32,000 bases of DNA. Source: Candidatus Methylomirabilis oxygeniifera. Lineage in GTDB: Bacteria > Methylomirabilota > Methylomirabilia > Methylomirabilales > Methylomirabilaceae. Under the pieces are notes generated by a model. The model saw only the letters and a list, made by a program, of their open reading frames with translations, did not search any database and was not told where the DNA came from. A program made the translations under genes and the position numbers. This document shows positions 5,319 to 31,801 of this stretch, piece after piece; position 1 is the stretch's first letter, and the number at the start of each line of letters is the position of its first letter. The stretch is from assembly GCA_000091165.1 (NCBI GenBank), contig FP565575.1, positions 2,610,001 to 2,642,000 of the forward strand, in the 5' to 3' direction.

Positions 5319-6164
5319 CTATGTGACCGTAACCCGCAAATAGAGGTCGCCGTGCGTTCCATCCCGGCCTTCAAGCCCTTTGCCCTTCAACCGCAGCCTG
5401 GTTCCGGATCGGGTGCCGGGAGGGATCGCCACCATCAGCTCTTCGATCTGGTCGCCCCGCATGAAGCTGACGCGCTTGCGCACGCCGGAAGCGGCCTCTT
5501 GAGCGGTAATGGTCAGATGATACCGGAGATTCTGGCCCCCCTCGGCGGAGTCTGAATCCCCGGCGCTCCACCGTTTCACCACGTCAAAGCCCGCCTTAAG
5601 CCCGCGTCCGATTACGGAAAGCAGGCCGCCTGATCCTGTTAGCTGATTGCTGTTCGCTGAGAGCTGAGCGCTGTCTTTCTTCACCGCCATGCGAGAGGCG
5701 CGTCGTCGGAGCACTCCGATCGGCGCGCCCATAAAGACGCCGCCGAAGACAAATCCGCGACTCCCGAAGAAGACCTGGCGCACGAAGGCGTCATCGAATC
5801 GGATGCCGGCTCTGGCGAATTCACGGTTCATCTCAGCAAAGATCGACGACATGGCAGGATTGGAGAAGAGATCCCGGAAGATCTCCTCCTGAGAGTACTG
5901 AAATCCACCTGCTTGGCCGCCCACCCCGGCCTGGGTCCCGCGAAAGGCATCGTACTGCCGTCGCTTGCCCTGATCCATCAGGACGGCATACGCTTCGCTG
6001 ATCGCTTTGAATCGCTCCCCCGCTTTGGGATCTCCCGGATTCTTGTCGGGGTGGTGCTGGAGCGCGAGTCGCCGGTACGCCCTGCGCAGCTCCTCCTCCG
6101 TGGCCTGCTCCGTGACGCCGAGAGTAGTGTAATAGTCTTTCCCGTTATCGCGCATGCGGGCCAT
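5319..6164 (-). CDS. J-domain co-chaperone (DnaJ/CbpA-like, no zinc-finger domain)
   Basis: The ATG at 6164 ([17 protein letters not shown]) lies 5 nt after the stop of the upstream gene. It has a J domain with HPD ([13 protein letters not shown]...[11 protein letters not shown]), a Gly-rich linker ([13 protein letters not shown]) and a DnaJ-type C-terminal beta domain (RLRLKGKGL...GDLYLRVTV). The ORF-track start at 6245 overlaps the upstream gene and is rejected. Confidence 0.8.
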
Positions 6165-6169
6165 GTCTG

Positions 6170-7126
6170 TTACTCCGGCTTCGGGTACAGCGCAAGATAA
6201 TCCTTGATGGCGTCGTGGGCGCTGCGGAACGCCAGGTCCTCCCACGGAATCCGGGTCGGGGGGAAGACCTGTGCATCGAGCGCTTCGTCCTTCGCGACAA
6301 GCTCGCCCCCAACCACGCGCGCCGCGTAGGCGACGATCACGACCCCTGAGTCCTCATAGGAGTAGACATTCAGGAGCCGGTCGATCTCGACATCAAGGTT
6401 GACCTCTTCTTTCGTTTCGCGAACGGCCGCCGCCTCGACCCGCTCGCCCTTATCGACGAAGCCGCCTGGAAAGACCCATTTGCCGTACGCCGGGGAGATC
6501 GCCCGCCGGACCAGTACGATCCCACCGTCAAGCGTAAACAGGGCGCCTGCCGCCACCTTTGGGTCAGGATACTGGATGAATGAGCAACCTTGACAGGCCG
6601 GCAGTTCCGGCCCGTCCGGCTTCAGCCGTCTGGGTGTAAGCGTCATCCCGCACCGCGGGCAATATCGGAACGAGTCGTCAGAGCGGTGCATATGGCCATG
6701 AGCGCGTTTGCCATCGCCGGACGCCTCGCGTTCCGATTGAGTTGCGCCCATCGGATCATCGCCATCCGATTCGGTGATCCGTTCCAGGATCACCTCGCCG
6801 ATCTTCGGATGGACGCCCAGCGGCCGGGTAATCCGGTAGGTGATGCCGGGGTGCCGGCCGGCCGCCTGCCTGACAAGGTCGGGAATGCCGACAGCGACGT
6901 GCTTTCCCGCGCTGAGGAAGTACGGGTGGACGATCACCTCATCGGCCCCATCGGCAACGCAGGCATCAAACCCCTGCTGGATGGTCGGCTCCCCAAGCTC
7001 CATGTGGGCGTAGTGCACGATGCGCAGGCCGAACTGCTCCCCCATCAGGCCGGCGACCTTACGGAGCAGGTCGTTTGATCCTTCGCGGCGGCTACCATGA
7101 TCAACGATAAGAAGGGCTTGTTTCAT
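6170..7126 (-). CDS. fusion protein: CbiX/SirB-type sirohydrochlorin chelatase + zinc-ribbon NUDIX hydrolase
   Basis: ATG at 7126. [14 protein letters not shown]...[14 protein letters not shown] matches a small CbiX chelatase with both active-site His regions. An acidic/His-rich linker follows (ESDGDDP...[13 protein letters not shown]), then a CPRCG...CQGC zinc ribbon and the Nudix box [24 protein letters not shown]. The frame is single and uninterrupted. Confidence 0.75.
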
Positions 7127-7267
7127 ATACGCATAGTATACTACGCAGGATAGCAGGTGACAATCTTGCCCGCTAAGCGGACCTGTTCCAGCGCCAAAGT
7201 TTGACACACCTCCGGTGATTTTCTTAGAATACGTCATGGCCCAAGGGCCACCCATGCGTCATGAAAA

Positions 7268-7385: not shown

Positions 7386-8153
7386 ATGAAGATTCTTCGT
7401 CTGGAAGTGCCACACTGGCAACAATTTGACGGCCTGGTCCACGGCTTTCTTGGCCGTGTGAGCGGCCAGGATCGTTCGTCTAACGCCGCCTTTCGCCTGT
7501 CATCCGATAACGGCGACGACGCTGAAGCCGTCAAGTCCAACTGGTGCGAGTTAAAGATGGTGCTTCGTCTGCGCGACCTCGATATTATCACGGCCACGCA
7601 GGTTCACGGCAACGCGATCCTTCAGGTCTGCAGCGGGACCGGCAAACTAGCGGGGATCGGGGATGGGCTGATGACCGATGCGTCCAGCCTCTGCGTGGGG
7701 GTGATGGCGGCCGACTGCGTCCCGATCCTGTTCATGGAGCCAACGCGCAAGATTGCCGCCGCGGTCCATGCCGGATGGCGGGGGACGGCTGCGGGTATCG
7801 CCGCGCGGACGGTCGCGTCGATAGAAGAGGTGTATGGGATCGACTCCAACGCGCTTCATGTGGCAATGGGACCGTCGATCGGCCCTTGCTGTTACGAGGT
7901 GGGACCGGAGGTCGCAGCACAGATCGCAGCGAACTGGCGAGAGGAGTTAAGGGACGCCTGGAGGCCCGATGGGGTCAAGGGCCGCCTTGATCTGAGGGCT
8001 CTGAACGAGGCCCAGCTTCTCGGCGCGGGTATTCCTCAAATGCAGATCAGCAAGATCGGTCCCTGCACAGCCTGCCACATCAAAGATTTCTACTCCTACC
8101 GGAAAGAGGGAAAAAGCGGCCACCAATTAAGTTTCATTGGCTGGCGGGCGTAG
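7386..8153 (+). CDS. pgeF: peptidoglycan editing factor PgeF / YfiH (DUF152, laccase-domain protein)
   Basis: ATG at 7386 ([11 protein letters not shown]). The ORF-track extension from 7215 translates a G/C hairpin repeat. Family signatures: [43 protein letters not shown]. Confidence 0.85.
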
Positions 8154-10789: not shown

Positions 10790-11818
10790 TTAGCCGGGAT
10801 GCGCTTGCATGAAGCGGTCAAGTTCAGTAATGAAGCGTCGTTTCTCATCGGCGCGCAAGAAGCTCGCCTCGAAGGCGTTCCTTGCGAGCGCATAGATATC
10901 ATGCCGGGTCAGCCCAAGAGCCTTCTGCGAAGCCAGGAGATTTTCGGTGATATAGCCGCCGAAGTAGGCGGGATCGTCGGAATTCACGGTCACGCACAGC
11001 CCGAGATCGAGCAGCTTCTTGAGATTATGATTCTCCAGCGACTTGAAGACGCAGAGCTTGACGTTTGAAAGGGGACAGACGGTGAGAGGAATCCTTTCCC
11101 TGGCCAGTCGTTGAATTAGCGCTGGATCCTCAAGGCACCGGACGCCATGGTCTAACCGCGACACGTGGAGCAGGTCGAGTGCCTGCCGGATATAGTCCGG
11201 GGGACCCTCTTCCCCCGCGTGGGCGACGGTCAAATACCCCTCCGCTCTGGCCCGTTCAAACACCTCAACAAACTTGTTGGGGGGATGATTCAGCTCTGAG
11301 GAGTCTAATCCGACAGCCACAATCCAGTTTTTGAACCGGAGCGACGCCTCGAGCGTCAGCATCGCCGTATCCGCCTCCAGGTGGCGGAGAAAGCACATAA
11401 TCAGCCTTGATGAAATGCCGAGTTGCGGGATGGCCTCTTCGAGAGCACGATGGATACCCCTGATCACCGTGTCAAATGGGACGCCCCGATCGGTGTGGGC
11501 CTGAGGATCAAAGAAGATTTCCGTGTGACGAACATGCTGCTGCGCGGCACGCTCAAGGTAGGCCCAGGTCAGATCGAAGAAATCCTGCTCATGAAGAAGC
11601 ACCTCGACCCCTTCGTAATAAATATCCAAAAAAGACTGGAGGTTGTGAAAGCGGTAGGCTCGGCGAAGCTCCTCGACCGTGGCAAATCGAAGAGCCAGGT
11701 GATTGCGCCTGGCCAATTCATGCAGCAGCTCGGGTTCCAATGTGCCCTCAATATGCACATGCAGCTCTGCTTTCGGAAGATCGCGAATGAGTTGTTCCAG
11801 GTCATTAGTGTGGCTCAT
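10790..11818 (-). CDS. add: adenosine/adenine deaminase (amidohydrolase superfamily)
   Basis: [19 protein letters not shown] (HxH metal ligands), TVAHAGEEG and [13 protein letters not shown]. 342 aa. Confidence 0.9.
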
Positions 11819-18283: not shown

Positions 18284-18631
18284 ATGCCGATTCTCCTGGC
18301 CGTCAGCGGACAGCTACGCAGGACCTCGCGGGTCCCGATCAGTGTACTCGCCTAAGCGATGACGATAAGGTTATTGCCGGTGAAAAACTCGGCCCCCGCT
18401 ATCACTCTGCTTGATTGTCGCCAATATAGTCTCACGTTCTAATGGGGTCAAGGATTCATGCGGCATCATCTTTGCTGTAGCGCTTTTGCTCCACCCACCC
18501 TATACTAAGAGTCAATTGTAAGCGGCCCTCATTTCGTCACCATTGGACAGATGCCGGATTCCATATGACTTGAAACGTGGAATGTGGCATCTGGAACTTT
18601 GGACATAGAACGTAGAACGAGGTTTTGGACT

Positions 18632-20572
18632 ATGAACCAGAGCGTTGCTCCACCGCTTGCCGGCTTGACCGGCCTTACCGTAGTCTCCTTTGAGAGTCGC
18701 CTGGCTGCTCCGATGGCCGACCTGATCAGCCGTCAAGGGGGTATTCCTGTCTCTGCGCCTGCGCTCCGCGAAATCCCATGTACGGAACATGCGGAAGCCA
18801 ACGAGTTTGCAAAGGCATTACTGGCCGGCCGGATCGATATGGTTGTATGGCTGACCGGCGTGGGCGCCCGCGCCTTGCTGACCGCTGTGGAAGGGACCGT
18901 TTCGCGCGCGGAGTGTCTGGCAGCCCTGAGCCGAATCCCAACCATTGCCCTTGGTCCAAAACCCCAAGCGGTTCTACGGGAACTGGGTATCCCGATTACG
19001 CTGGCTGTTCCGGAGCCGAACACCTGGCGCGAGATTCTGACGGCTATCGACAGCGCGGCTATCCCTCTGCTTGGTCGACGGGTAGCGGTCCAGGAATACG
19101 GTCGCAGCAACCCGGAGCTGATTGCGGGACTGCAGACGCGCGGCGCCAGTGTCCTGCGGGTTCCGGTCTACCAGTGGGCATTGCCCGAGGATTGTGGTCC
19201 TTTGCGGCAGGCGATCAAGGCTATTGCCAATCAGCAGGTCGATCTGGTCCTGTTTACGACCGCTGTACAGGCAGATCATCTGCTGCAGGTCGCGGCGGCG
19301 GACGGTCTGGAGGAGCCGCTGCGAACAGGATTACGCGATACGGTCGTTGCCTCAATCGGCCCCACCTGCAGCAAAGCACTCCGCGAACATGGCCTGACGG
19401 TCGACCTGGAGCCGGAGCATCCCAAAATGGGCCATCTGGTTCAGACGGCAGCGCGACACGCCCACGTGCTGCGGCGGATCAAGCGAGCCGGAACAGTGCA
19501 GGCGACCGGAGGCCGAAGACCGGAGACCGGAGGCGCGAATCTCTTGCAGGAGAGTCCGTTCCTGAAGGCCTGCCGCTTGGAGCCGGCCCCCTATACCCCG
19601 ATCTGGATCATGCGGCAGGCCGGGCGCTACCTTCAGGAGTATCGGGAGATTCGAGGGAAGCTGTCGTTTCTGGAGCTGTGTCATCGACCTGATCTGGCGG
19701 CGGAGGTGACGGTCACGGCCGCCGAGCGGCTCGGTGTGGATGCCGCGATCATCTTCGGCGATATCCTCCTGGTGGTGGAGCCGATGGGGGTCGGGTTGGA
19801 GTTTACTAAGGGGGACGGTCCGGTCATCCATCATCCGATACGGTGCGGGGCCGACCTGAAACGGCTGCAACCGGTCGATGTGCAGGGATCGCTTTCGTTT
19901 CTCTTTGAAGCGGTGCGCCTAGCGCGCGCAGCGCTACCGGCGAATATCCCCCTCATTGGGTTCGCCGGGGCGCCGTTCACCCTGGCATCGTACCTGATCG
20001 AGGGCCGCGGGTCGCGCCAGTATCAACAGATCAAGACGCTCATGTACCGCGATCCCGCTGCGTGGCACGCCCTCATGGAACGGCTGTCCGATGTCGTATC
20101 CGACTACCTGAATGGTCAGATCGCCGCGGGGGTCCAAGTGGTGCAGTTATTCGATAGCTGGGTCGGCTGTCTGAGCCCTGACGACTATCGGGAGTTCGTC
20201 CTGCCCCACACGAAACGGGCTATCGCGCGACTTGTACCCGGCGTGCCGGTCATTCACTTCGGGACCGACACGACATCGCTGCTGCCGCTGATACGGGAGG
20301 CCGGCGGGAATGTGATCGGACTGGACTGGCGAGTGGATCTTGGGGAGGCCTGGGCCGGGCTAGGATATGAGGTCGGTGTACAGGGCAACCTGGATCCGGT
20401 GGCGCTATTCGCCGAACCCGATAAGATTCGCCGCCAGGCCGATCGGATTCTTGAGCGGGCAGCGAAACGACCAGGCCACATCTTCAATCTCGGTCATGGC
20501 ATCCTCCCGCAAACCCCCGTAGACCACCTGCGCGTGCTCATCGACTATGTCCACGAAGCGACAGCAAGGTGA
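18632..20572 (+). CDS. hemE: fusion protein: uroporphyrinogen-III synthase (HemD) + uroporphyrinogen decarboxylase (HemE)
   Basis: ATG at 18632. The N-terminal ~310 aa look HEM4-like (LTVVSFESRLAAPMADLISRQGGIPVSAPALREIP...DMVVWLTGVGARALL...DLVLFTTAVQADHLL). The C-terminal ~340 aa are canonical URO-D (PIWIMRQAGRYLQEYREIR, IIFGDILLVVEPMG, GFAGAPFTLASYLIEG, VQLFDSW, GHIFNLGHGI). Confidence 0.85.
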   Translation: MNQSVAPPLAGLTGLTVVSFESRLAAPMADLISRQGGIPVSAPALREIPCTEHAEANEFAKALLAGRIDMVVWLTGVGARALLTAVEGTVSRAECLAALSRIPTIALGPKPQAVLRELGIPITLAVPEPNTWREILTAIDSAAIPLLGRRVAVQEYGRSNPELIAGLQTRGASVLRVPVYQWALPEDCGPLRQAIKAIANQQVDLVLFTTAVQADHLLQVAAADGLEEPLRTGLRDTVVASIGPTCSKALREHGLTVDLEPEHPKMGHLVQTAARHAHVLRRIKRAGTVQATGGRRPETGGANLLQESPFLKACRLEPAPYTPIWIMRQAGRYLQEYREIRGKLSFLELCHRPDLAAEVTVTAAERLGVDAAIIFGDILLVVEPMGVGLEFTKGDGPVIHHPIRCGADLKRLQPVDVQGSLSFLFEAVRLARAALPANIPLIGFAGAPFTLASYLIEGRGSRQYQQIKTLMYRDPAAWHALMERLSDVVSDYLNGQIAAGVQVVQLFDSWVGCLSPDDYREFVLPHTKRAIARLVPGVPVIHFGTDTTSLLPLIREAGGNVIGLDWRVDLGEAWAGLGYEVGVQGNLDPVALFAEPDKIRRQADRILERAAKRPGHIFNLGHGILPQTPVDHLRVLIDYVHEATAR

Positions 20573-21529: not shown

Positions 21530-23017
21530 ATGGCGACGGAACAGCACAGCGGCAGCAGGCGTATCGTGGTGGTGGGGAGCGGCATCGCGGGTCTGGCTGC
21601 CGCCTATCGGCTGCAGGAGCGGTGCGAGCAGGACGGCCCGCCTTGCGAGGTGCGCGTATTGGAGGCCGCTGCACGGCCCGGCGGTGCGATCAGTACCACG
21701 CACCGGGATGGTTTTGTTCTTGAATCTGGGCCCGATACCATTTTCACCGATAAGCCGTGGGGATTGGATCTGATCAGACGCCTCGGTCTGAGCGAGCAGG
21801 TCATCGGGACCAATGAGGCGCACCGCCGGACCTTTGTTGTGCGGGACGGCGCACTGCACCCGCTGCCCGAAGGGTTCGCCTTGATGGGGCCGACCAAGCC
21901 TTGGCCGTTTCTGCAATCAGGGCTGCTGTCATGGCGCGGCAAGGCAAGGGCGGCTCTGGACCTGGTACTGCCGCGAGGGGGACCATCCGACGACGAGAGC
22001 CTGGCGTCGTTCGTTCGGCGTCGTTTCGGACAGGAGTTTCTCGATCGGCTGGCCCAACCGATGATCGGTGGAATCTATGGCGCCGACCCGGAGCGGTTGA
22101 GTCTGCGCGCTACCTTCCCGCAGTTTCTGCAGATGGAAGCGACGCATCGCAGCGTGATCCTCGGCCTGCGACGAATGCGCCCCGCCGGCCGCGGCGTAGG
22201 TCATACCAGCAGCGGCCCGCGCTATGGCCTGTTTGTCACGCTGGATCACGGGCTGCAGGCCCTCGTCGATGCCATGGTAAAAAGGCTGCCGGCTGGGACG
22301 CTGCGTCTCCGCGCGCCGGTTGATAGAATCGCGCACACAGAGCAAGGCTGGACCGTTCGACTTGGAGACGGCGCGAGCCTGCAGGCCGATGGCCTTATTC
22401 TCGCCGTCCCCGCATTTGAGATTGCCAGGCTTACCCACGACCTGGACCAAGACCTGGCTCGTCAGCTCGAGGCCATGCCCTACGCCTCTTCGGTCACGAT
22501 CAATCTGGCCTATCGTAGAGAGGCGATCCACCATCCGCTCGACGGGTTTGGATTTGTGGTGCCGGCCTGCGAGGGGCGCACCATCATTGCCTGTTCGTTC
22601 AGCAGCGTGAAGTTCGCTCATCGGGCGCCGGCCGGTCACGTCCTGCTGCGTGCCTTCGCGGGCGGCGCGCTGCAGCCGGAGCCGTTCACCTGGGATGACG
22701 AGACGCTGCTGAGCGCAGTGCGCCGCGATCTGGAGGAGCTGCTGGCGATTCACGCGCCGCCTTTGTGGAGCCAGTTGGTCCGACATCCTCGTGTGATGCC
22801 CCAGTACCAGGTCGGCCACCTGGGCCGGTTGGCGGCGCTCGAAGAGACGCTTCGGCGGTGGCCGACCCTCAAGCTGACCGGTAACGCCTACAGAGGTGTC
22901 GGTGTGCCGGATGTGGTTCACAGCGGGGAGACGGCCGCCGATTCATTATTGGCAGAGCTGGCCCCGTCACCGACCGAGCCGACCCCCGCTTGTACCGAAG
23001 GCGATTCTCGCCTATAA
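21530..23017 (+). CDS. hemY: HemY-type FAD-dependent protoporphyrinogen/coproporphyrinogen III oxidase
   Basis: RIVVVGSGIAGLAAAYRL (GxGxxG) and VLEAAARPGG. 495 aa, and the C-terminal GNAYRGVGVPDVVHSG is typical of HemY. It is the third gene of a hemE-hemH-hemY array. Confidence 0.85.
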   Translation: MATEQHSGSRRIVVVGSGIAGLAAAYRLQERCEQDGPPCEVRVLEAAARPGGAISTTHRDGFVLESGPDTIFTDKPWGLDLIRRLGLSEQVIGTNEAHRRTFVVRDGALHPLPEGFALMGPTKPWPFLQSGLLSWRGKARAALDLVLPRGGPSDDESLASFVRRRFGQEFLDRLAQPMIGGIYGADPERLSLRATFPQFLQMEATHRSVILGLRRMRPAGRGVGHTSSGPRYGLFVTLDHGLQALVDAMVKRLPAGTLRLRAPVDRIAHTEQGWTVRLGDGASLQADGLILAVPAFEIARLTHDLDQDLARQLEAMPYASSVTINLAYRREAIHHPLDGFGFVVPACEGRTIIACSFSSVKFAHRAPAGHVLLRAFAGGALQPEPFTWDDETLLSAVRRDLEELLAIHAPPLWSQLVRHPRVMPQYQVGHLGRLAALEETLRRWPTLKLTGNAYRGVGVPDVVHSGETAADSLLAELAPSPTEPTPACTEGDSRL

Positions 23018-23099: not shown

Positions 23100-24368
23100 A
23101 TGCACGCAAGAAAGATCGTTATCCTGTGTGGGTTCATGGCCGCTATAATCTTCAGTGCGGGTTGCGCGACCACGCTGTCGAAGGTCGCCTATATCGTCTC
23201 GGAAGATCAGGGAACAACCTCGGTTCTGGTTCAGAACGCCGATGGCAGTAATCCCGTCCGCGTTCCGGGCCTGTCCGGGGTAATCTCGGAGATTGCCATA
23301 TCGCCTAGTGGCCAGCGGCTGGCCTATGTGATTGGCGGAACCACCACCGGCCTCGAACAGGTGTTTGTCGCCGAACTGGATGAACACAGTAACATCGTAG
23401 GGGTCAGACGCAACGTTTCGGATGAACTGCCGACCGCGAGAAGCTTCTCGCCGAAGTTTCTCGACGACAATCATCTCCTGTATCTTTCGGAGAACCAGGG
23501 TGACCGGATTCTGGTTCTGATAGATTTACTCACCGGAGGTAAGCAGAAGATCTCCGCGATCAGCGGAACGATCGACACGGTGATCCGGTACAACATTGAC
23601 GACAAAGACGCCCTCTTTTTTGGGCTGAACAAGGAGATGCGACGATTTGACCTTCCGACCGGGCCGCTTCGGTCGGTTGTGGCGAATACGGGGAGCGTCT
23701 CCGCGCTGACCTATGAGAAGATGGGGATTTTTGAGAATTCCCTTATTTTTAGTACTCAGGTCACTCCCGAGGAACGGGTCATCTCACACATGCGTCTGGA
23801 TGGAACAGGGCTCAAGGTTGTTGCTGAGGTCCCCTCTGAACTGGTTTTTTCGATCATTAGGCTGGCGCAGGAACCGGCATCGCGGGTCCAGCGATTCGGT
23901 CTGTTTGACTTCACTCTGGTGACAAGGCCCGAGGACGAGGCAGACCTGATTACGCTGGAAGGCTACGAGATAACCGCACAGAAGATCACTGAACGGCACC
24001 TCTTCTGGGTCGTGCGAGATCTGCGGAGCCCGGACCTGGTCCGTGCGGTCTACGCGGCGAAGGGCTTAGAGGATCTTAGAACAGGGGCCCACGGAAGATC
24101 GGTCTACCTCGCATCGACGGGGAACATGCTGGTCTGGTATGATCCTGCCAACAAAAAGATATGGGGCGTGCCGATCGACCAGATCGGCGAGAATCCGGTC
24201 GATCTCTCGGCCGGCGTAACCAGAGTGGCCAATCGTCCTTTTTCGATTTCAGCAAACAATATCGGTGTAGTTACTGAAGAGGGGAAGCTCTATTTACTTT
24301 CAACCAACCGCACGTCGCTGCCCCGCTTGTTGGGGCAGGGAATTCACATGAGCATCACCCGCCCGTGA
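23100..24368 (+). CDS. hypothetical lipoprotein, TolB/PD40-like beta-propeller suspected
   Basis: AAGGAGA RBS. MHARKIVILCGFMAAIIFSAGC is a signal peptide plus lipobox. Repeated strand-rich segments such as ISPSGQRLAYVIGG...VFVAELD and LYLSENQGDRILVLIDLLTG resemble PD40 repeats. No specific family recognised. Confidence 0.55.
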   Translation: MHARKIVILCGFMAAIIFSAGCATTLSKVAYIVSEDQGTTSVLVQNADGSNPVRVPGLSGVISEIAISPSGQRLAYVIGGTTTGLEQVFVAELDEHSNIVGVRRNVSDELPTARSFSPKFLDDNHLLYLSENQGDRILVLIDLLTGGKQKISAISGTIDTVIRYNIDDKDALFFGLNKEMRRFDLPTGPLRSVVANTGSVSALTYEKMGIFENSLIFSTQVTPEERVISHMRLDGTGLKVVAEVPSELVFSIIRLAQEPASRVQRFGLFDFTLVTRPEDEADLITLEGYEITAQKITERHLFWVVRDLRSPDLVRAVYAAKGLEDLRTGAHGRSVYLASTGNMLVWYDPANKKIWGVPIDQIGENPVDLSAGVTRVANRPFSISANNIGVVTEEGKLYLLSTNRTSLPRLLGQGIHMSITRP

Positions 24369-27004: not shown

Positions 27005-27042
27005 GCCTCACCCTGTCAATCTAGTGAGGCTGCTGTTTTTTT
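27005..27042 (+). terminator. rho-independent terminator-like hairpin, 145 nt downstream of dedA
   Basis: GCCTCAC (27005-27011), a 12-nt loop, GTGAGGC (27024-27030), then tgctg and T7 (27036-42). No annotated gene ends directly at it. Confidence 0.5.
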
Positions 27043-27241
27043 AGGCTTGCCTCGCTTCAAGAGGCGGGTTATCTTTACTCTGTACTCGCTCCACGCGAAC
27101 CTCTCTTTGCGGACGATCATCCGAGACAATACCGATAGCGACGAGTTCTTTACCGTTTGGGACGCCGCAGTATAAGATTTTCCTGTCATCATGATGGCTG
27201 GGCCCGCCCTCTTCACGCGGTATCGATGATGGTTGACGGCA

Positions 27242-27772
27242 ATGGATCTATATCTTAGCGAGAATGCCTTCGTCGGACTGTTGGTCTCGACGATCGAGGT
27301 CTATCGAAAGGAATGCTTCGGTGTGCTCCTGGGCCAGGTGACGTCCGACCGGGTTCTGGTCGATTTCGTCGTGCCGTACCAGACGGCCAACCGGAAGTTC
27401 CGCGAGGTACACGTCGATCTGATGCGGAGTCAACGGGTCGAGGAGGCCGTCAGGAGCACCTCGCGCTGGGAGTGTGTGGGCGACTACCACTCCCACCCGA
27501 TGTACGGCACAGCCAGGGCGACCACGACGCTGAGTGCGGTCGATCGAAAGTTCTTCAAGGATGAGAATATCGCGATTGTCGTGGCCATTAACGATTCGGC
27601 GCGGCAGCAGCGGTGGAGCTACGTGCGGGGCGGTGGTGTGTCCGGCAGTATTAACGGGTACAATATCCGGATCGCAGGTTACCACAAGGCAAACGGGACC
27701 ATCGAGCGAGCGCCGGTCCACTGCCCGTATGCCATTGGGTTTCAGGCCAAGGAGTTGAACAACAAGGAGTGA
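27242..27772 (+). CDS. JAB/MPN+ (JAMM) family metallopeptidase, stand-alone
   Basis: Complete JAMM signature: RKECFGVLLG (Glu), GDYHSHP (HxH), LSAVD (SxxD). ATG 27242 is preferred; the ORF track uses TTG 27233. The stop TGA 27770-72 abuts the next ATG. Confidence 0.7.
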   Translation: MDLYLSENAFVGLLVSTIEVYRKECFGVLLGQVTSDRVLVDFVVPYQTANRKFREVHVDLMRSQRVEEAVRSTSRWECVGDYHSHPMYGTARATTTLSAVDRKFFKDENIAIVVAINDSARQQRWSYVRGGGVSGSINGYNIRIAGYHKANGTIERAPVHCPYAIGFQAKELNNKE

Positions 27773-28624
27773 ATGGTCGCCATGGCCATGCGCTCGCACG
27801 CGCAGCTCAAGGCACTCCTGGATGAGTTGTATCACCGCTATAGTCGGCCTGCCTTTCTCTCAACCGACCCTATCAGCATTCCCCATGAATATCGTTGCCC
27901 GGACGACCGCGAGATCGCAGCCTTCGTCGCCGCCTCTCTTGCCTATGGCAACGTCAAGCAGATCCACCGCAGCGCTACGGCCGCGCTCGAGGCGATGGGG
28001 AAGAGCCCGGCCCGGTTCATCCGGCGATTCGATCCAGCCCGGGATCCGGCGCGGCTCCGACACGTTGTCCACCGTTTCAACTCGGGTGTCGATCTGGCGA
28101 TTCTCTGCTATCTCCTCTGTCAGGCGATTGCAACAGCAGGATCGCTTCAGGCCTTCTTTCTCAAAGGGCATGATCCCGTTCACGACGATATCGAGCCTGC
28201 CCTGACCAGCTTTGTTGAGCGGATGCTGTCGCTGGATGTCTCGCCGTTCTACCCTTCCGGCATACTTCCGGCAAAGGCCGGCGTCCGCTTCTTTTTCCCC
28301 TCGCCGGCGGGAGGGTCAGCCTGCAAGCGTCTCAATCTATTCTTGCGCTGGATGGTGCGTCGCGACGATGCGATCGATTTCGGGCTCTGGACAGAGGTCT
28401 CACCGGCGAAGCTGATCGTACCCCTCGATACGCATGTCGCGCGGATCGCGCGACAACTCGGCCTGACCAGGATCAAGCAGGCCAACTGGCGAATGGCCAC
28501 AGAGGTGACGCGACGGCTCCGAGCGTTCGATCCAGAGGATCCCGTAAAGTACGACTTCGCCCTCTGCCGCCTCGGTATCCTGAAGCAGCCGATCCCAGAC
28601 CACCGCCAAGCCCGGTTAACCTGA
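27773..28624 (+). CDS. TIGR02757/DUF2400 family protein; HhH-GPD DNA-glycosylase-like by motif
   Basis: AAGGAG RBS inside the end of the JAB gene. ASLAYGNVKQI, GGSACKRLNLFLRWMVRRD, LIVPLDTHVARIARQLGL and DPVKYDFALCRLG match my recollection of TIGR02757. PLDTHVxR....LGL parallels endonuclease III VDTHIFRV (catalytic Asp segment). Confidence 0.6.
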   Translation: MVAMAMRSHAQLKALLDELYHRYSRPAFLSTDPISIPHEYRCPDDREIAAFVAASLAYGNVKQIHRSATAALEAMGKSPARFIRRFDPARDPARLRHVVHRFNSGVDLAILCYLLCQAIATAGSLQAFFLKGHDPVHDDIEPALTSFVERMLSLDVSPFYPSGILPAKAGVRFFFPSPAGGSACKRLNLFLRWMVRRDDAIDFGLWTEVSPAKLIVPLDTHVARIARQLGLTRIKQANWRMATEVTRRLRAFDPEDPVKYDFALCRLGILKQPIPDHRQARLT

Positions 28625-28847: not shown

Positions 28848-29090
28848 ATGACCAGCATCACAGCTACTGAGGCTCGAAAAAGACTGTACGCGCTCCTGGA
28901 CGATGTCGCCGATTCCCATGAACCCATCCAGATCGCCGGCAAGCGCCATTCCGCAGTGCTCGTGTCGGAAGCCGACTGGCGCGCCATCCAGGAGACGCTG
29001 TACCTGGATGCCATCCCAGGAATGCGCGCCTCGATTCGCAAGGGCTTGAAAACCCCCGTCGAGAAGTGTCACGAGGAGCTTGATTGGTAA
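28848..29090 (+). CDS. yefM: Phd/YefM family antitoxin
   Basis: ITATEARKRLYALLDDVADSHEPIQIAGKRHSAVLVSEADWRAIQETLYL is a canonical YefM N-terminal domain. 80 aa. Confidence 0.85.
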   Translation: MTSITATEARKRLYALLDDVADSHEPIQIAGKRHSAVLVSEADWRAIQETLYLDAIPGMRASIRKGLKTPVEKCHEELDW

Positions 29091-29350
29091 GATGGAAGCT
29101 CGTCTATACCGGCCAGGCGAGGCGTGATGCCAAGAAGCTGGCGCGTTCGGGACTTAAACTGCAAGCTGAGCGCCTCCTAAAAATCCTCGAACGGAATCCC
29201 TACCAGAATCCGCCTCCATTCGAACGACTCGTTGGGGACCTTGCCGGCGCCTTATCTCGCAGGATCAGCATTCAACATAGGCTCGTGTACCAAGTGCTAA
29301 ACGACATCAAGACCGTCAAGATCATCCGTCTATGGACCCATTACGAATGA
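29084..29350 (+). CDS. yoeB: Txe/YoeB family mRNA interferase toxin
   Basis: The TTG start overlaps the yefM end. KLVYTGQARRDAKKL...LLKILERNPYQNPPPFERLVGDLAGALSRRISIQHRLVYQV...VKIIRLWTHYE; the C-terminal HY(E) is typical of YoeB. Confidence 0.85.
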   Translation: MVRWKLVYTGQARRDAKKLARSGLKLQAERLLKILERNPYQNPPPFERLVGDLAGALSRRISIQHRLVYQVLNDIKTVKIIRLWTHYE

Positions 29351-29526: not shown

Positions 29527-30057
29527 ATGGCAGATCCTGTTAATGGTGGGGCTATAGGTGCGGAGAGCGGGAAGAGGGATATGAATGATGCTGACAAGAT
29601 ACCGTGCAACTGTTGCAGAGAGCTAATAACAAAATGGGCACCCGTGTGCTACCATTGCGGGAGAAATCAAAAACCTCTGATGCGCTATCTGACTGCGGCA
29701 CCCGTGATGATATCTCTCACTTTAGTAGTGTTATCATGGTTTCAATTCTCTGAAGCTAGGCGTCAAAGACAAAGTGCTGATGTAGCCCTTCTTAGAGCAG
29801 AGGCCACCGAGCGTAGGGAGGAACAAATAGCGAAAGCCACCAATGCAGCACTTGGTAGAGCCGAGGCCGCCGAGCGCTGTGTAACCAAAATCGCGAAAAC
29901 TGCGATTCCGATTTTTGAGTCTCTTTTAGAATCAAAAGGCACTTTCGGCACTTACTCGTCGAAGGAAATGGGGAAACTGCTAAAGCCATTTAAGAATGCA
30001 ATAACTGAATGCTCAGAAAGCCGAACCGGGCCTGTAGAGACTTTATTAAAGAATTGA
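29527..30057 (+). CDS. hypothetical protein: N-terminal zinc ribbon, one TM helix, repeat-containing coiled-coil C-terminus
   Basis: GGGGGAG RBS. CNCC-x11-CYHC zinc ribbon, TM YLTAAPVMISLTLVVLSWFQF, and an internal duplication LLRAEATERREEQIAKAT / LGRAEAAERCVTKIAKTA. Hand-counted lines are 42-43% G+C versus about 60% in core genes. Confidence 0.5.
   Translation: MADPVNGGAIGAESGKRDMNDADKIPCNCCRELITKWAPVCYHCGRNQKPLMRYLTAAPVMISLTLVVLSWFQFSEARRQRQSADVALLRAEATERREEQIAKATNAALGRAEAAERCVTKIAKTAIPIFESLLESKGTFGTYSSKEMGKLLKPFKNAITECSESRTGPVETLLKN
29788..29904 (+). repeat. in-frame tandem duplication (period 63 nt) inside the zinc-ribbon protein gene
   Basis: cttcttagagcagaggccaccgagcgt... versus cttggtagagccgaggccgccgagcgc... 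11 of 18 encoded residues are identical. Confidence 0.7.
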
Positions 30058-30156
30058 CCTGCTGCGTGGTCCAGCTAATCGCGTGATTTTCACGTACTGG
30101 ATGACCTTGGTGTGGACCAAAGTGAAAGCCGAATCAGATTCTCTTATACCATACCC

Positions 30157-30888
30157 ATGAAACAGGATGACATATTGCGGAATCTTTCGGCGCGGGCCGG
30201 TCGGGCGGTGGCCCATTACTGGGCAACCAGGGCTGCCCAACGAGACAGGCAGAAGCAGACCGGAAAGGCCGATCAGGGGCTGCGCAGCGCTGTGACCGGC
30301 GGAGCGCAGATGGATGGATTCATTGACCTCTTCACCGAACTCATTACGGCCGCCGGGATACCTGCGCGGTACATCTTTCGGAGCAAGGACGTGGAGCTTC
30401 CGGGATTCTTCCGTCCCACCAAGGAATGGGACCTGCTCGTCATCCGCGAGAAAACGCTACTCATTGCCATTGAAGCTAAGTCACAGGTCGGACCGTCGTT
30501 CGGCAACAACTTCAACAACCGAACCGAGGAGGCGATGGGAAGCGCGCTCGACCTCTGGACCGCGTATCGGGAACATGCCTACCTCGCAAGTCCTCAACCG
30601 TTCCTCGGCTACTTCTTCATGTTGGAGGACTGCGATGCCTCCAACAACCCGGTGAAAGTGCGGGAACCGCACTTCAAGGTTTTTCCGGAGTTTGTCGGCG
30701 CGTCGTATTGTCGTCGGTACGAACTCTTCTGCCGAAAGCTTGTGCTTGAGCGATACTACACAACATCAGCGTTCATCACCTCGACGGCCAGCGACGGTAG
30801 CAGGGGCCTGTTTTCAACGCCGGCGGACGACCTCTCGCTTGAGCGTTTCGCCAAGATTCTTGTCGGCCATTTGGCGGCCTTTGTGTGA
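30157..30888 (+). CDS. type II restriction endonuclease, PaeR7I/XhoI-like (PD-(D/E)xK)
   Basis: ATG 30157 (MKQDDILRNL). WDLLVIREKTLLIAIEAKSQ gives D...ExK. SQVGPSFGNNFNNRTEEAMGSALDLWTAYRE and PHFKVFPEF match my recollection of the PaeR7I/XhoI family. It sits directly upstream of a methyltransferase. Confidence 0.55.
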   Translation: MKQDDILRNLSARAGRAVAHYWATRAAQRDRQKQTGKADQGLRSAVTGGAQMDGFIDLFTELITAAGIPARYIFRSKDVELPGFFRPTKEWDLLVIREKTLLIAIEAKSQVGPSFGNNFNNRTEEAMGSALDLWTAYREHAYLASPQPFLGYFFMLEDCDASNNPVKVREPHFKVFPEFVGASYCRRYELFCRKLVLERYYTTSAFITSTASDGSRGLFSTPADDLSLERFAKILVGHLAAFV

Positions 30889-30892
30889 CCAG

Positions 30893-31801
30893 ATGGGAAC
30901 AACGATGCACAGGCTGATCAACGGGGATTCGCGGGACCTCTCGTTCCTGCCGGACGCATCAGTCCATCTTATCGTCACGTCACCGCCGTACTGGAATCTC
31001 AAGCGGTATAACGAGAATCCGGACCAGCTTGGGCACATTCAGGAGTACGAAGCCTTCCTGTTTGAGTTGGAGAAGGTCTGGCGGCATGTCTACCGAATTC
31101 TCGTGCCCGGCGGTCGTTTAGTCTGCGTGGTCGGAGATGTGTGCGTTGCTCGGCGCGATTTTGGCCGGCACCTGGTTTTTCCACTGCATGCCGATATTTG
31201 CGTCGTATGCCGGCGGATCGGATTTGATAACTTAAACCCGATCATCTGGCACAAGATCGCTAACGCCTCCTATGAAGTTGAGAACGGGTCCAAGTTTCTT
31301 GGGAAGCCGTACGAGCCGAACGCCATCATCAAGAATGATATGGAATTCATCCTGATGCAGCGAAAACCCGGCGGGTACAGAAAGCCAACGAATCAACAGC
31401 GTGATGCAAGCCGAATCCGGAAAGATGACTTTGGCCAATGGTTTCAGCAGATATGGACTATCCCAGGCGCTTCGACTAAACAGCATCCCGCACCGTTCCC
31501 ATTGGAACTTGCCACCCGTCTGATTCGTATGTTCTCCTTCACGGGCGACACCGTCTTAGATCCTTTTTGCGGTTCCGGGACCACAATGATTGCGGCTCTG
31601 CGGACAGGCCGAAACAGCATCGGCGTTGAGATCGATCCGGAGTATTGCCGAATGGCTGCACGCTACCTCAAAGCTGAGGCCGGCGATCTTTTCTCGACCG
31701 TCCAGCTCCTGTTTGAAAAGACGGCCACCGAAACAGCGAGCCTTGTCAAGGAAGATCACGCTCTCTACGAAGTTCGACCAGCGAGGAAAAAACTCGAATA
31801 G
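30893..31801 (+). CDS. DNA methyltransferase, beta-class (motif IV before motif I), SPPY type (N4-cytosine or N6-adenine)
   Basis: The ATG at 30893 lies 4 nt after the REase stop (an alternative ATG is 30905). Motif IV is HLIVTSPPYWNLKRY and motif I is VLDPFCGSGTTMIAA. The ORF-track start at 30692 overlaps the REase gene and is rejected. Confidence 0.85.
   Translation: MGTTMHRLINGDSRDLSFLPDASVHLIVTSPPYWNLKRYNENPDQLGHIQEYEAFLFELEKVWRHVYRILVPGGRLVCVVGDVCVARRDFGRHLVFPLHADICVVCRRIGFDNLNPIIWHKIANASYEVENGSKFLGKPYEPNAIIKNDMEFILMQRKPGGYRKPTNQQRDASRIRKDDFGQWFQQIWTIPGASTKQHPAPFPLELATRLIRMFSFTGDTVLDPFCGSGTTMIAALRTGRNSIGVEIDPEYCRMAARYLKAEAGDLFSTVQLLFEKTATETASLVKEDHALYEVRPARKKLE

Follow-up and report, generated by a model that had tools for sequence, protein, structure and literature searches.

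JAB domains, the signature of the JAMM/MPN metallopeptidases, are known in cyclic-oligonucleotide-based antiphage signaling systems (CBASS) and in ubiquitin-like defense systems. A JAB domain is also one half of RadC (UPF0758), the N-terminal module of which is a simple helix-hairpin-helix (HhH) DNA-binding motif and not a glycosylase domain. Within the HhH DNA-glycosylase superfamily, the iron-sulfur (Fe-S) loop of the EndoIII/MutY type is an element that binds the DNA backbone. Here we analyzed a 32,000-nucleotide stretch of the methane oxidizer Candidatus Methylomirabilis oxygeniifera (contig FP565575.1, positions 2,610,001 to 2,642,000 of the forward strand; the window, from whose first letter all our coordinates are counted), in which a gene for a standalone JAMM protein (gene 1) is followed by a gene of the DUF2400/TIGR02757 family (gene 2). 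On balance, we consider this pair to be a core-chromosome, vertically inherited operon of the order Methylomirabilales (NC10), which probably combines a base-excision-type, EndoIII-like protein (gene 2) with a JAMM protein (gene 1), and we regard the neighboring toxin-antitoxin (TA) and restriction-modification (R-M) genes as an unrelated insertion.

Gene 1 runs on the forward strand from an ATG at 27242 to a TGA at 27770-27772 (27242..27772, 176 residues), and gene 2 follows on the same strand from an ATG at 27773 to a TGA at 28622-28624 (27773..28624, 283 residues). Reading and translating the open reading frames (ORFs) returned both genes as an earlier, sequence-only reading of this DNA had described them, together with the motifs that it quoted. 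Homologs of gene 1 share its start Met. For gene 2 there is an alternative start, ATG 27782 (Met4); close homologs open with MAMRS..., and Met4 may be the true start. We also surveyed stretches around JAB or DUF2400 homologs (loci labeled L001 and so on), in which ORFs were called by a simple longest-ORF heuristic, so that single neighbor calls may err while recurring patterns are robust. At L001, the called DUF2400 gene begins 9 nt past the JAB stop. With gene 2 starting at 27773 or 27782, the JAB–DUF2400 gap in the window is 0 to 9 nt, and in relatives it lies between about −18 and +49 nt. The claim that the two genes abut thus stands for the TGA at 27770-27772 and the ATG at 27773, but gives way to a 9-nt gap if ATG 27782 is used. 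The ribosome-binding site proposed within the end of gene 1 is there, as a Shine-Dalgarno-like AAGGAG on the forward strand (27764..27769) directly before the TGA; 3 nt separate it from ATG 27773 and 12 nt from ATG 27782, and the hexamer occurs once more at 27749-27754. Judged from this layout, the two genes are very likely co-transcribed, and translational coupling between them is plausible.

Gene 1 encodes a small single-domain protein that matches Pfam Prok-JAB (PF14464; 29.2 bits, cutoff 25) and JAB (PF01398; 26.6 bits, cutoff 22.5). Its motifs KECFGVLLG (E24), GDYHSHP (H83 and H85) and LSAVD (S98 and D101) form a complete JAMM signature, and all 32 aligned homologs share E24, H83, S98 and D101, while at least 90% of them keep H85. 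HxH and S are separated by 12 residues, against 7 in the canonical motif, and a conserved C-terminal beta extension ends in CPYAIGF, with P-Y-A-x-G-F invariant in the same 32 sequences. An AlphaFold model of the protein (pLDDT 83) gave 177 Foldseek matches in the PDB at E ≤1e-3, the top ones being Rpn11 homologs, BRCC36 and CSN5 (E ~1e-7), with the Caldiarchaeum Rpn11 homolog at E 9e-8. Both the signature and, in the model, the MPN fold are therefore as the sequence-only reading had anticipated, and gene 1 is predicted to encode an active-looking standalone Zn2+ JAMM (iso)peptidase of the MPN+ type.

The gene 1 subfamily comprises 756 members (90%-identity clusters), with 597 representatives at 50% identity, and is a distinct group of ~180-residue standalone JAMM proteins of NC10 together with an Acidobacteria-type group; the close homologs of gene 1 are all from NC10/Methylomirabilales. 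Since the best 150 of the 597 representatives span 68 to 263 residues, none of them is fused to DUF2400. Against the NCBIfam desampylase model gene 1 scored 19 bits, far under the cutoff of 130. Family scans of the 32-kb window found no gene for a ubiquitin-like protein (Ubl), E1/E2, ThiS/MoaD, CD-NTase or phage tail protein, as had been noted from the sequence, and the Ubl, ThiS/MoaD and E1 companions of the Ubl or sulfur-carrier type of JAB protein (desampylase, Mec+/CysO, QbsD) are thus missing from the window. A search upstream of JAB in relatives likewise found no conserved small Ubl-like ORF.

Gene 2 matches DUF2400 (PF09674) with 259 bits over profile positions 1 to 224 of 225 and TIGR02757 with 200 bits (cutoff 139), and contains LIVPLDTHVARIARQLGL and YDFALCRLG. 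In an alignment of 34 homologs, D219 and H221 of the PLDTH motif are invariant, as are P176, P178, S182, C184, K185 and R186 of a second motif, P-x-P-x-x-G-S-x-C-K-R-L-N-L, in which N188 is nearly so. The structural model of gene 2 (pLDDT 92.9) contains a helix (residues 170 to 174), a Gly-rich loop (175 to 184) and a further helix (185 to 195) in this region. Its Foldseek matches in the PDB with a probability of at least 0.6 were exclusively HhH-superfamily proteins (Qng1/DUF2419, OGG1, EndoIII-1, TAG, MUTYH and MagIII). At the sequence level, a DUF2400 profile search of the PDB returned endonuclease III only, weakly (E 0.2 to 0.6), over PLDTH and the Cys loop, with PLDTH falling on the PVDTH of two EndoIII structures other than 2ABK. 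When the gene 2 family was aligned by hhalign to E. coli Nth (a query identical in sequence to 2ABK), residues 216 to 283 fell on Nth residues 135 to 207 with an E value of 5e-4, pairing D219 with the EndoIII catalytic D138 and the family motif C-x8-C-x2-C-x5-C with the cysteine ligands of the Nth [4Fe-4S] cluster. By its pattern, K185/N188 may correspond to K120/N123 in the hairpin-helix of EndoIII (GVGRKTAN-like). These results bear out the earlier assignment of gene 2 to TIGR02757/DUF2400, the proposal that PLDTH mirrors the catalytic-Asp segment of EndoIII and, on the strength of the model, the proposed HhH glycosylase-like fold. From sequence and model together, gene 2 most likely encodes a cluster-less variant of the EndoIII-like branch of the HhH DNA-glycosylase superfamily, in which D219 and K185 would be the catalytic residues of a DNA glycosylase. 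A PDB search with the single gene 2 sequence found only designed Kelch-repeat "SAKe" proteins; these matches came from a 30-residue stretch aligned repeatedly by chance, and we discarded them.

Several observations weigh against this interpretation. The top Foldseek match of gene 2 in the PDB is the nucleotide hydrolase Qng1 (7u5a; E 0.028, probability 0.99, TM score 0.43), and there is a structural match to a phage amino-acid:DNA transferase (probability 0.89). The hhalign probability is 31%, with the alignment confined to the C-terminal third; the match of K185 to the HhH element is a pattern comparison in a region that lies outside every significant alignment; and the K185-to-D219 spacing is 34 residues versus 18 to 19 in EndoIII and OGG1. 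Pfam HhH-GPD (PF00730) matched neither gene 2 nor two distant homologs at E values up to 10, and kinship to HhH-GPD proteins is thus at the superfamily or fold level only. Gene 2 itself does not have the four-Cys Fe-S loop, its C terminus (...CRLGILKQPIPDHRQARLT) holding one Cys only. The literature searched contains neither biochemistry on DUF2400/TIGR02757 nor a characterized member, in agreement with the description of the family as functionally unassigned; it likewise yielded nothing pertinent on JAB paired with HhH-GPD or on DNA repair in Methylomirabilis. Finally, the adjacency of JAB and DUF2400 outlasts the turnover of flanking genes over deep NC10 subclades and could reflect real functional coupling. 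Between K185 and D219, gene 2 carries a conserved insert with D199, D202, G204 and W206.

DUF2400 is a very large family, with at least 7984 members among the matches listed, represented in numerous phyla as well as in some Bacteroidales phages, and most of its members outside NC10 end in C-x8-C-x2-C-x5-C. The Fe-S motif was absent from all 33 JAB-paired DUF2400 proteins and present in 32 unpaired ones, with a variant in many Acidobacteria. A tie between Fe-S loss and JAB pairing was considered and rejected, since the motif is likewise missing from unpaired lineages such as Ignavibacteria. In the C termini from L007 to L086, the Cys pattern is canonical in Desulfobacterota, Planctomycetota and others; in many Vicinamibacterales its place is taken by a respaced three- to four-Cys variant, C-H-x-G-M-M-x-x-C-G-x(9-10)-C-P-L-x-G-x-C; and Ignavibacteria, some Acidobacteria and NC10 have no C-terminal Cys motif. 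This lineage dependence suggests repeated loss or remodeling of the Fe-S cluster. At five loci of Vicinamibacterales/Rokubacteria (L025, L030, L043, L048 and L068), the DUF2400 frame is open far upstream, giving apparent ORFs of 700 to 1000 residues, which may be real N-terminal fusions or open frames of high-GC DNA.

The chromosomal setting of the pair was assessed by blastn of window positions 24 to 32 kb against close relatives. These share the backbone ilvD–dedA–(variable spacer)–JAB–DUF2400–inositol monophosphatase, the last on the opposite strand, which is kept in L094, L095, L101, L103 and L104. The TA/R-M block is absent from L094 (a 322-kb contig), L101 and L104, in which at most about 80 nt separate DUF2400 from the phosphatase gene that follows. 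L095 has yefM-yoeB but not the R-M genes, L103 has yefM-yoeB followed by ~2 kb that do not match the window, and in L097 yefM-yoeB is the only part of the block present. Since the phosphatase gene adjoins DUF2400 in these relatives and starts only at ~31.84 kb in the window, the interval of ~28.65 to 31.83 kb is strain-variable cargo. By family scans, it holds YefM (28848-29090), YoeB (29084-29350), an unassigned 176-residue ORF with a weak match to phrog_8032 (29527-30057), an XhoI-family endonuclease (30112-30888) and an N4/N6 methyltransferase (about 30914-31801). The GC content of this stretch is 0.48 to 0.57 versus 0.59 to 0.61 for the JAB–DUF2400 pair; a search for direct repeats flanking the insertion found none. 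From these comparisons, the interval between DUF2400 and the phosphatase gene marks an insertion hot spot.

The sequence-only reading had proposed the pair as a DNA-targeting or defense module, in part for its position directly beside yefM-yoeB and a type II R-M system. The adjacency and its coordinates are correct. The inference did not hold: the defense-like neighbors are a strain-specific insertion and the pair sits on a conserved housekeeping locus of Methylomirabilis, which counts against a role in phage defense. Such a setting, and the lack of JAB beside DUF2400 in other lineages (below), are two of the outcomes that the sequence-only reading itself had named as speaking against its proposal. 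PADLOC recognized the R-M genes and gave only generic JAB-domain matches for gene 1 (E 4e-6 to 1e-2), weak matches that the JAB domains of CBASS and ubiquitin-like systems explain; none of its models matched gene 2. PHROGs matched neither gene, and the gene 1 JAB subfamily had no match in the phage and plasmid collections searched. Neither a known antiphage model with its required partners nor a conserved tie to defense genes or to a variable island was found.

How general the pairing is was examined from both sides. On the DUF2400 side, we surveyed 80 loci from different species (Acidobacteriota, Desulfobacterota/Geobacter, Planctomycetota, Nitrospirota, Ignavibacteria, Rokubacteria and others), and a gene 1-type JAB lay within 5 kb at one of them, L007, from an NC10-like metagenome-assembled genome. 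A Pfam scan of 150 immediate DUF2400 neighbors found JAB in L007 only. The recurrent neighbors elsewhere are dihydroorotase (pyrC), pyrB, pyrR, D-Tyr-tRNA deacylase (dtd) and glycosyltransferases. On the JAB side (80 metagenomic loci plus looked-up contigs), DUF2400 lay downstream at 24 of 24 loci with JAB identity of at least 83% and at some loci only when identity was 65 to 72%; overall, ~39 JAB loci were paired with DUF2400 versus ~34 unpaired. The unpaired NC10 loci have a conserved 264-residue gene directly upstream of JAB, which was present at 46 loci, none of them with DUF2400. In the Acidobacteria-type branch (~40% JAB identity), an overlapping GlnQ-like ABC ATPase gene is always downstream, and the locus lies between cysS and ddl.

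In a neighbor-joining tree of JAB, these configurations separate cleanly, with DUF2400 in several deep subclades and the 264-residue gene in one clade. Since configuration tracks the tree, we conclude that the loci were inherited vertically with rearrangement and are not a mobile module. The JAB–DUF2400 link is a lineage-specific operon arrangement and not a universal partnership, with no co-occurrence outside one lineage, and with such a distribution the two are unlikely to be obligate partners. Examples of the 264-residue gene are L144:1082-1876, L090:5168-5962 and L005:6900-7646. Its product has no Pfam, NCBIfam or PDB assignment and only weak LRV-repeat matches; the idea that it is a diverged glycosylase was rejected, with an hhalign probability of 0.6% against DUF2400 and no PDB match. 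Two acidobacterial VWA-domain genes precede JAB in the Acidobacteria-type branch (L172:6001-7259 and L173 to L176).

DNA-repair genes recur around the pair in relatives. Directly downstream of JAB–DUF2400 and on the same strand, nfo (endonuclease IV) is present in L087 to L089 and L120 to L122, with matches of about 290 to 297 bits to TIGR00587 (cutoff 130). The resulting three-gene JAB–glycosylase–AP endonuclease cluster occurs in two NC10 subclades (nfo at L087:7498-8331 and L121:5477-6400). L005, which has no DUF2400, carries a 125-residue ogt-like gene (7643-8020; Ogt C-terminal domain, intact PCHR motif) that overlaps the start of JAB, and nfo lies 2.3 kb downstream at 10912-11745, giving the order ogt-like–JAB...nfo. 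The recurrence of nfo, together with the one ogt-like gene, places the pair in a context of base-excision or DNA repair. Phages, too, encode DUF2400 homologs (~30% identity): there are 15 such records, of which Bacteroidales or unnamed gut phages account for 14, and the homologs sit within DNA replication, recombination and modification modules. The examples inspected are Bacteroides phage LoVEphage (MW660583, L177; DUF2400 at 5953-6705) and Bacteroides phage C1_85S2P (OR296437, L178; 6028-7176, 382 residues with a C-terminal extension), the DUF2400 protein of which was annotated by its depositor as an N-glycosylase/DNA lyase. These repair and phage-module neighbors, with the Fe-S loop typical of the family, favor a DNA substrate over a Qng1-like nucleotide substrate.

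The data suggest the following mechanism for gene 2. The protein would bind duplex DNA through the P-x-P-x-x-G-S-x-C-K-R-L-N-L-F-L hairpin-helix and flip a damaged or modified base into its pocket. Cleavage of the N-glycosidic bond would use D219, and K185 may act as a Schiff-base nucleophile. The abasic site would then pass to an apurinic/apyrimidinic (AP) endonuclease such as Nfo.

Any cooperation of JAB with gene 2 is conjectural. The best-surviving alternative to our interpretation is that the two products form a coupled repair module, in which JAB acts on or with the glycosylase by removing a regulatory peptide, by controlling its turnover, or by proteolysis of repair proteins in covalent linkage to DNA, such as a glycosylase trapped as a Schiff base or alkylated Ogt. 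The adjacency within −18 to +49 nt is kept in three deep NC10 subclades while the flanks change, and extends down to ~65% identity for JAB and ~55 to 60% for DUF2400; repair genes (DUF2400, nfo and ogt-like) recur around JAB; and the catalytic JAMM residues are fully conserved. However, about half of the JAB-subfamily loci have the 264-residue LRV-like gene or the amino-acid-type ABC ATPase in place of DUF2400, 79 of the 80 DUF2400 loci have no JAB, the best 150 JAB representatives include no fusion, and we know of no JAMM enzyme that acts on DNA–protein crosslinks. We therefore treat coupling as a tentative alternative, one that we judge improbable though worth retaining.

It is unlikely, in our estimation, that gene 2 is instead a nucleoside or nucleotide N-glycosidase (Qng1/DUF2419-like) or a DNA or RNA base-modifying transferase with the same fold. 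The structure matches to Qng1 and to the phage transferase speak for such a role, as do the position of DUF2400 downstream of pyrR-pyrB-pyrC, genes of nucleotide metabolism, in Vicinamibacterales and its place among DNA-modification genes in LoVEphage. But most of the family carries an EndoIII/MutY-type Fe-S loop with Cys residues aligned to the EndoIII ligands, similarity to PDB entries at the sequence level is solely to endonuclease III, and nfo lies directly downstream in NC10 relatives.

A bolder and decidedly doubtful idea is that a JAMM peptidase of the Methylomirabilales was recruited into base-excision or alkylation repair. Co-expressed with the glycosylase, and in relatives with nfo or the ogt-like gene, it would process the repair enzyme itself, either clearing trapped glycosylase– or alkyl-transferase–DNA adducts or serving turnover. 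If true, the recruited enzyme would be a bacterial, JAB-based counterpart of DNA–protein-crosslink or repair-factor proteolysis.

That the pair is an antiphage system, with gene 2 attacking modified phage DNA under regulation by JAB, is very improbable and already largely refuted by synteny: despite the adjoining yefM-yoeB and R-M genes of the present strain, the JAB domains of known defense systems and the DUF2400 homologs of Bacteroidales phages, the insertion is absent from close relatives, the pair is backbone of native GC, PADLOC and PHROGs lend no support, JAB is inherited vertically, and DUF2400 in the 79 other loci has housekeeping neighbors.

Upstream of gene 1, alignment of Methylomirabilis relatives revealed a conserved block of ~55 nt in the dedA–JAB spacer (27092..27146), ~100 to 150 nt before the JAB start, in an otherwise diverged spacer and with no consistent ORF on either strand. 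Rfam matched neither this block nor anything else in the window. Possible roles for the block are as a promoter, operator or leader for the operon; it could also be what is left of a decayed gene. At the equivalent position in L087 there is a MazE-family antitoxin gene on the minus strand. Two tandem hairpins precede the block on the forward strand (27007..27070; from sequence, a terminator scan and blastn): the first, GCCTCAC...GTGAGGC, is followed by a T-run, and the second is a terminator-like stem at 27044-27070. They overlap an island of ~50 nt (27027-27083) that is 87 to 92% identical by blastn in L094, L095, L097 and L103, although the spacer around it does not align among these loci. 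Judging by their position after dedA, the operon probably begins downstream of these hairpins, which are likely to be the terminator of dedA or else some small conserved element. A promoter scan upstream of JAB found nothing convincing.

The rest of the window is ordinary housekeeping chromosome. Its genes include those for a NIT-domain histidine kinase, an adenosine deaminase, an EgtB-like protein, an acyl-CoA dehydrogenase and a CoA-transferase, besides ilvD and dedA. Two apparent fusions were seen, one of HemD (uroporphyrinogen-III synthase) with HemE (uroporphyrinogen decarboxylase) at 18584-20572, and one of CbiX with a NUDIX hydrolase and a zinc ribbon at 6170-7255. Between a 495-residue ORF at 21530-23017, which we take from its sequence to be protoporphyrinogen oxidase (hemY), and ilvD lies a 422-residue ORF (23100-24368) with no Pfam match, the start of which, MHARKIVILCGFMAAIIFSAGC, may be a lipoprotein signal.

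The present analysis gives a very large orphan family a concrete hypothesis, that DUF2400 proteins are EndoIII-like DNA glycosylases, most of which carry an Fe-S cluster, that D219 and K185 are the candidate catalytic residues and that Nfo probably acts downstream of them. Through the JAB–glycosylase(–nfo) operon of NC10, a protease that assists base-excision repair might come to light. The analysis also removes a false lead, as the locus should not rank as a new immune system.

Gene 1 shares generic JAB-domain similarity, as scored by PADLOC, with CBASS Cap3 and the Bil/Bub-type JAB deconjugases, but its locus has no CD-NTase, E1/E2 Cap2 or Ubl and is vertically inherited core chromosome. The sequence-only reading had likened the pair to a RadC split over two genes. 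The likeness, a JAB combined with an HhH-containing module, is nominal: gene 1 has no match to Pfam RadC (PF04002), its subfamily shows no fusions among the best 150 of 597 representatives, and the HhH of RadC belongs to no glycosylase. At L090, a separate bona fide RadC gene lies near JAB. Closest to gene 1 are the standalone JAMM proteases (the Caldiarchaeum Rpn11 homolog, 6fnn; Haloferax desampylase; DSY2949, 2kks), which share its MPN fold, the E...HxH...S..D site and the small single-domain build, but gene 1 differs in having no Ubl/SAMP, E1 or ThiS/MoaD gene nearby, a spacer of 12 residues versus 7 and a family-specific C-terminal beta extension.

For gene 2, the queuosine-5′-phosphate glycosylase Qng1/DUF2419 (7u5a) offers the parallel of a cluster-less, once-uncharacterized protein with an HhH glycosylase fold. 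Qng1 is, however, only 12% identical to gene 2, without kinship at the sequence level; its substrate is a free nucleotide in queuosine salvage and not DNA, whereas DUF2400 proteins mostly carry an Fe-S loop and are nfo-adjacent in relatives. Relative to the EndoIII/MutY branch (E. coli Nth, 2ABK), gene 2 has no PF00730 match, a K–D spacing of 34 versus 18 with its conserved insert, and an extra N-terminal helical region, and it and its JAB-paired relatives have no Fe-S loop. By pattern, its Lys-x-x-Asn after a Gly-rich hairpin may be the counterpart of G-V-G-R-K-T-A-N. Gene 2 shares with this branch a predicted all-helical, two-lobe fold and an Asp that falls on catalytic D138 within an x-[PV]-x-D-T-H-[VI] segment, and in most DUF2400 proteins the terminal four-Cys motif aligns with the [4Fe-4S] ligands of EndoIII.

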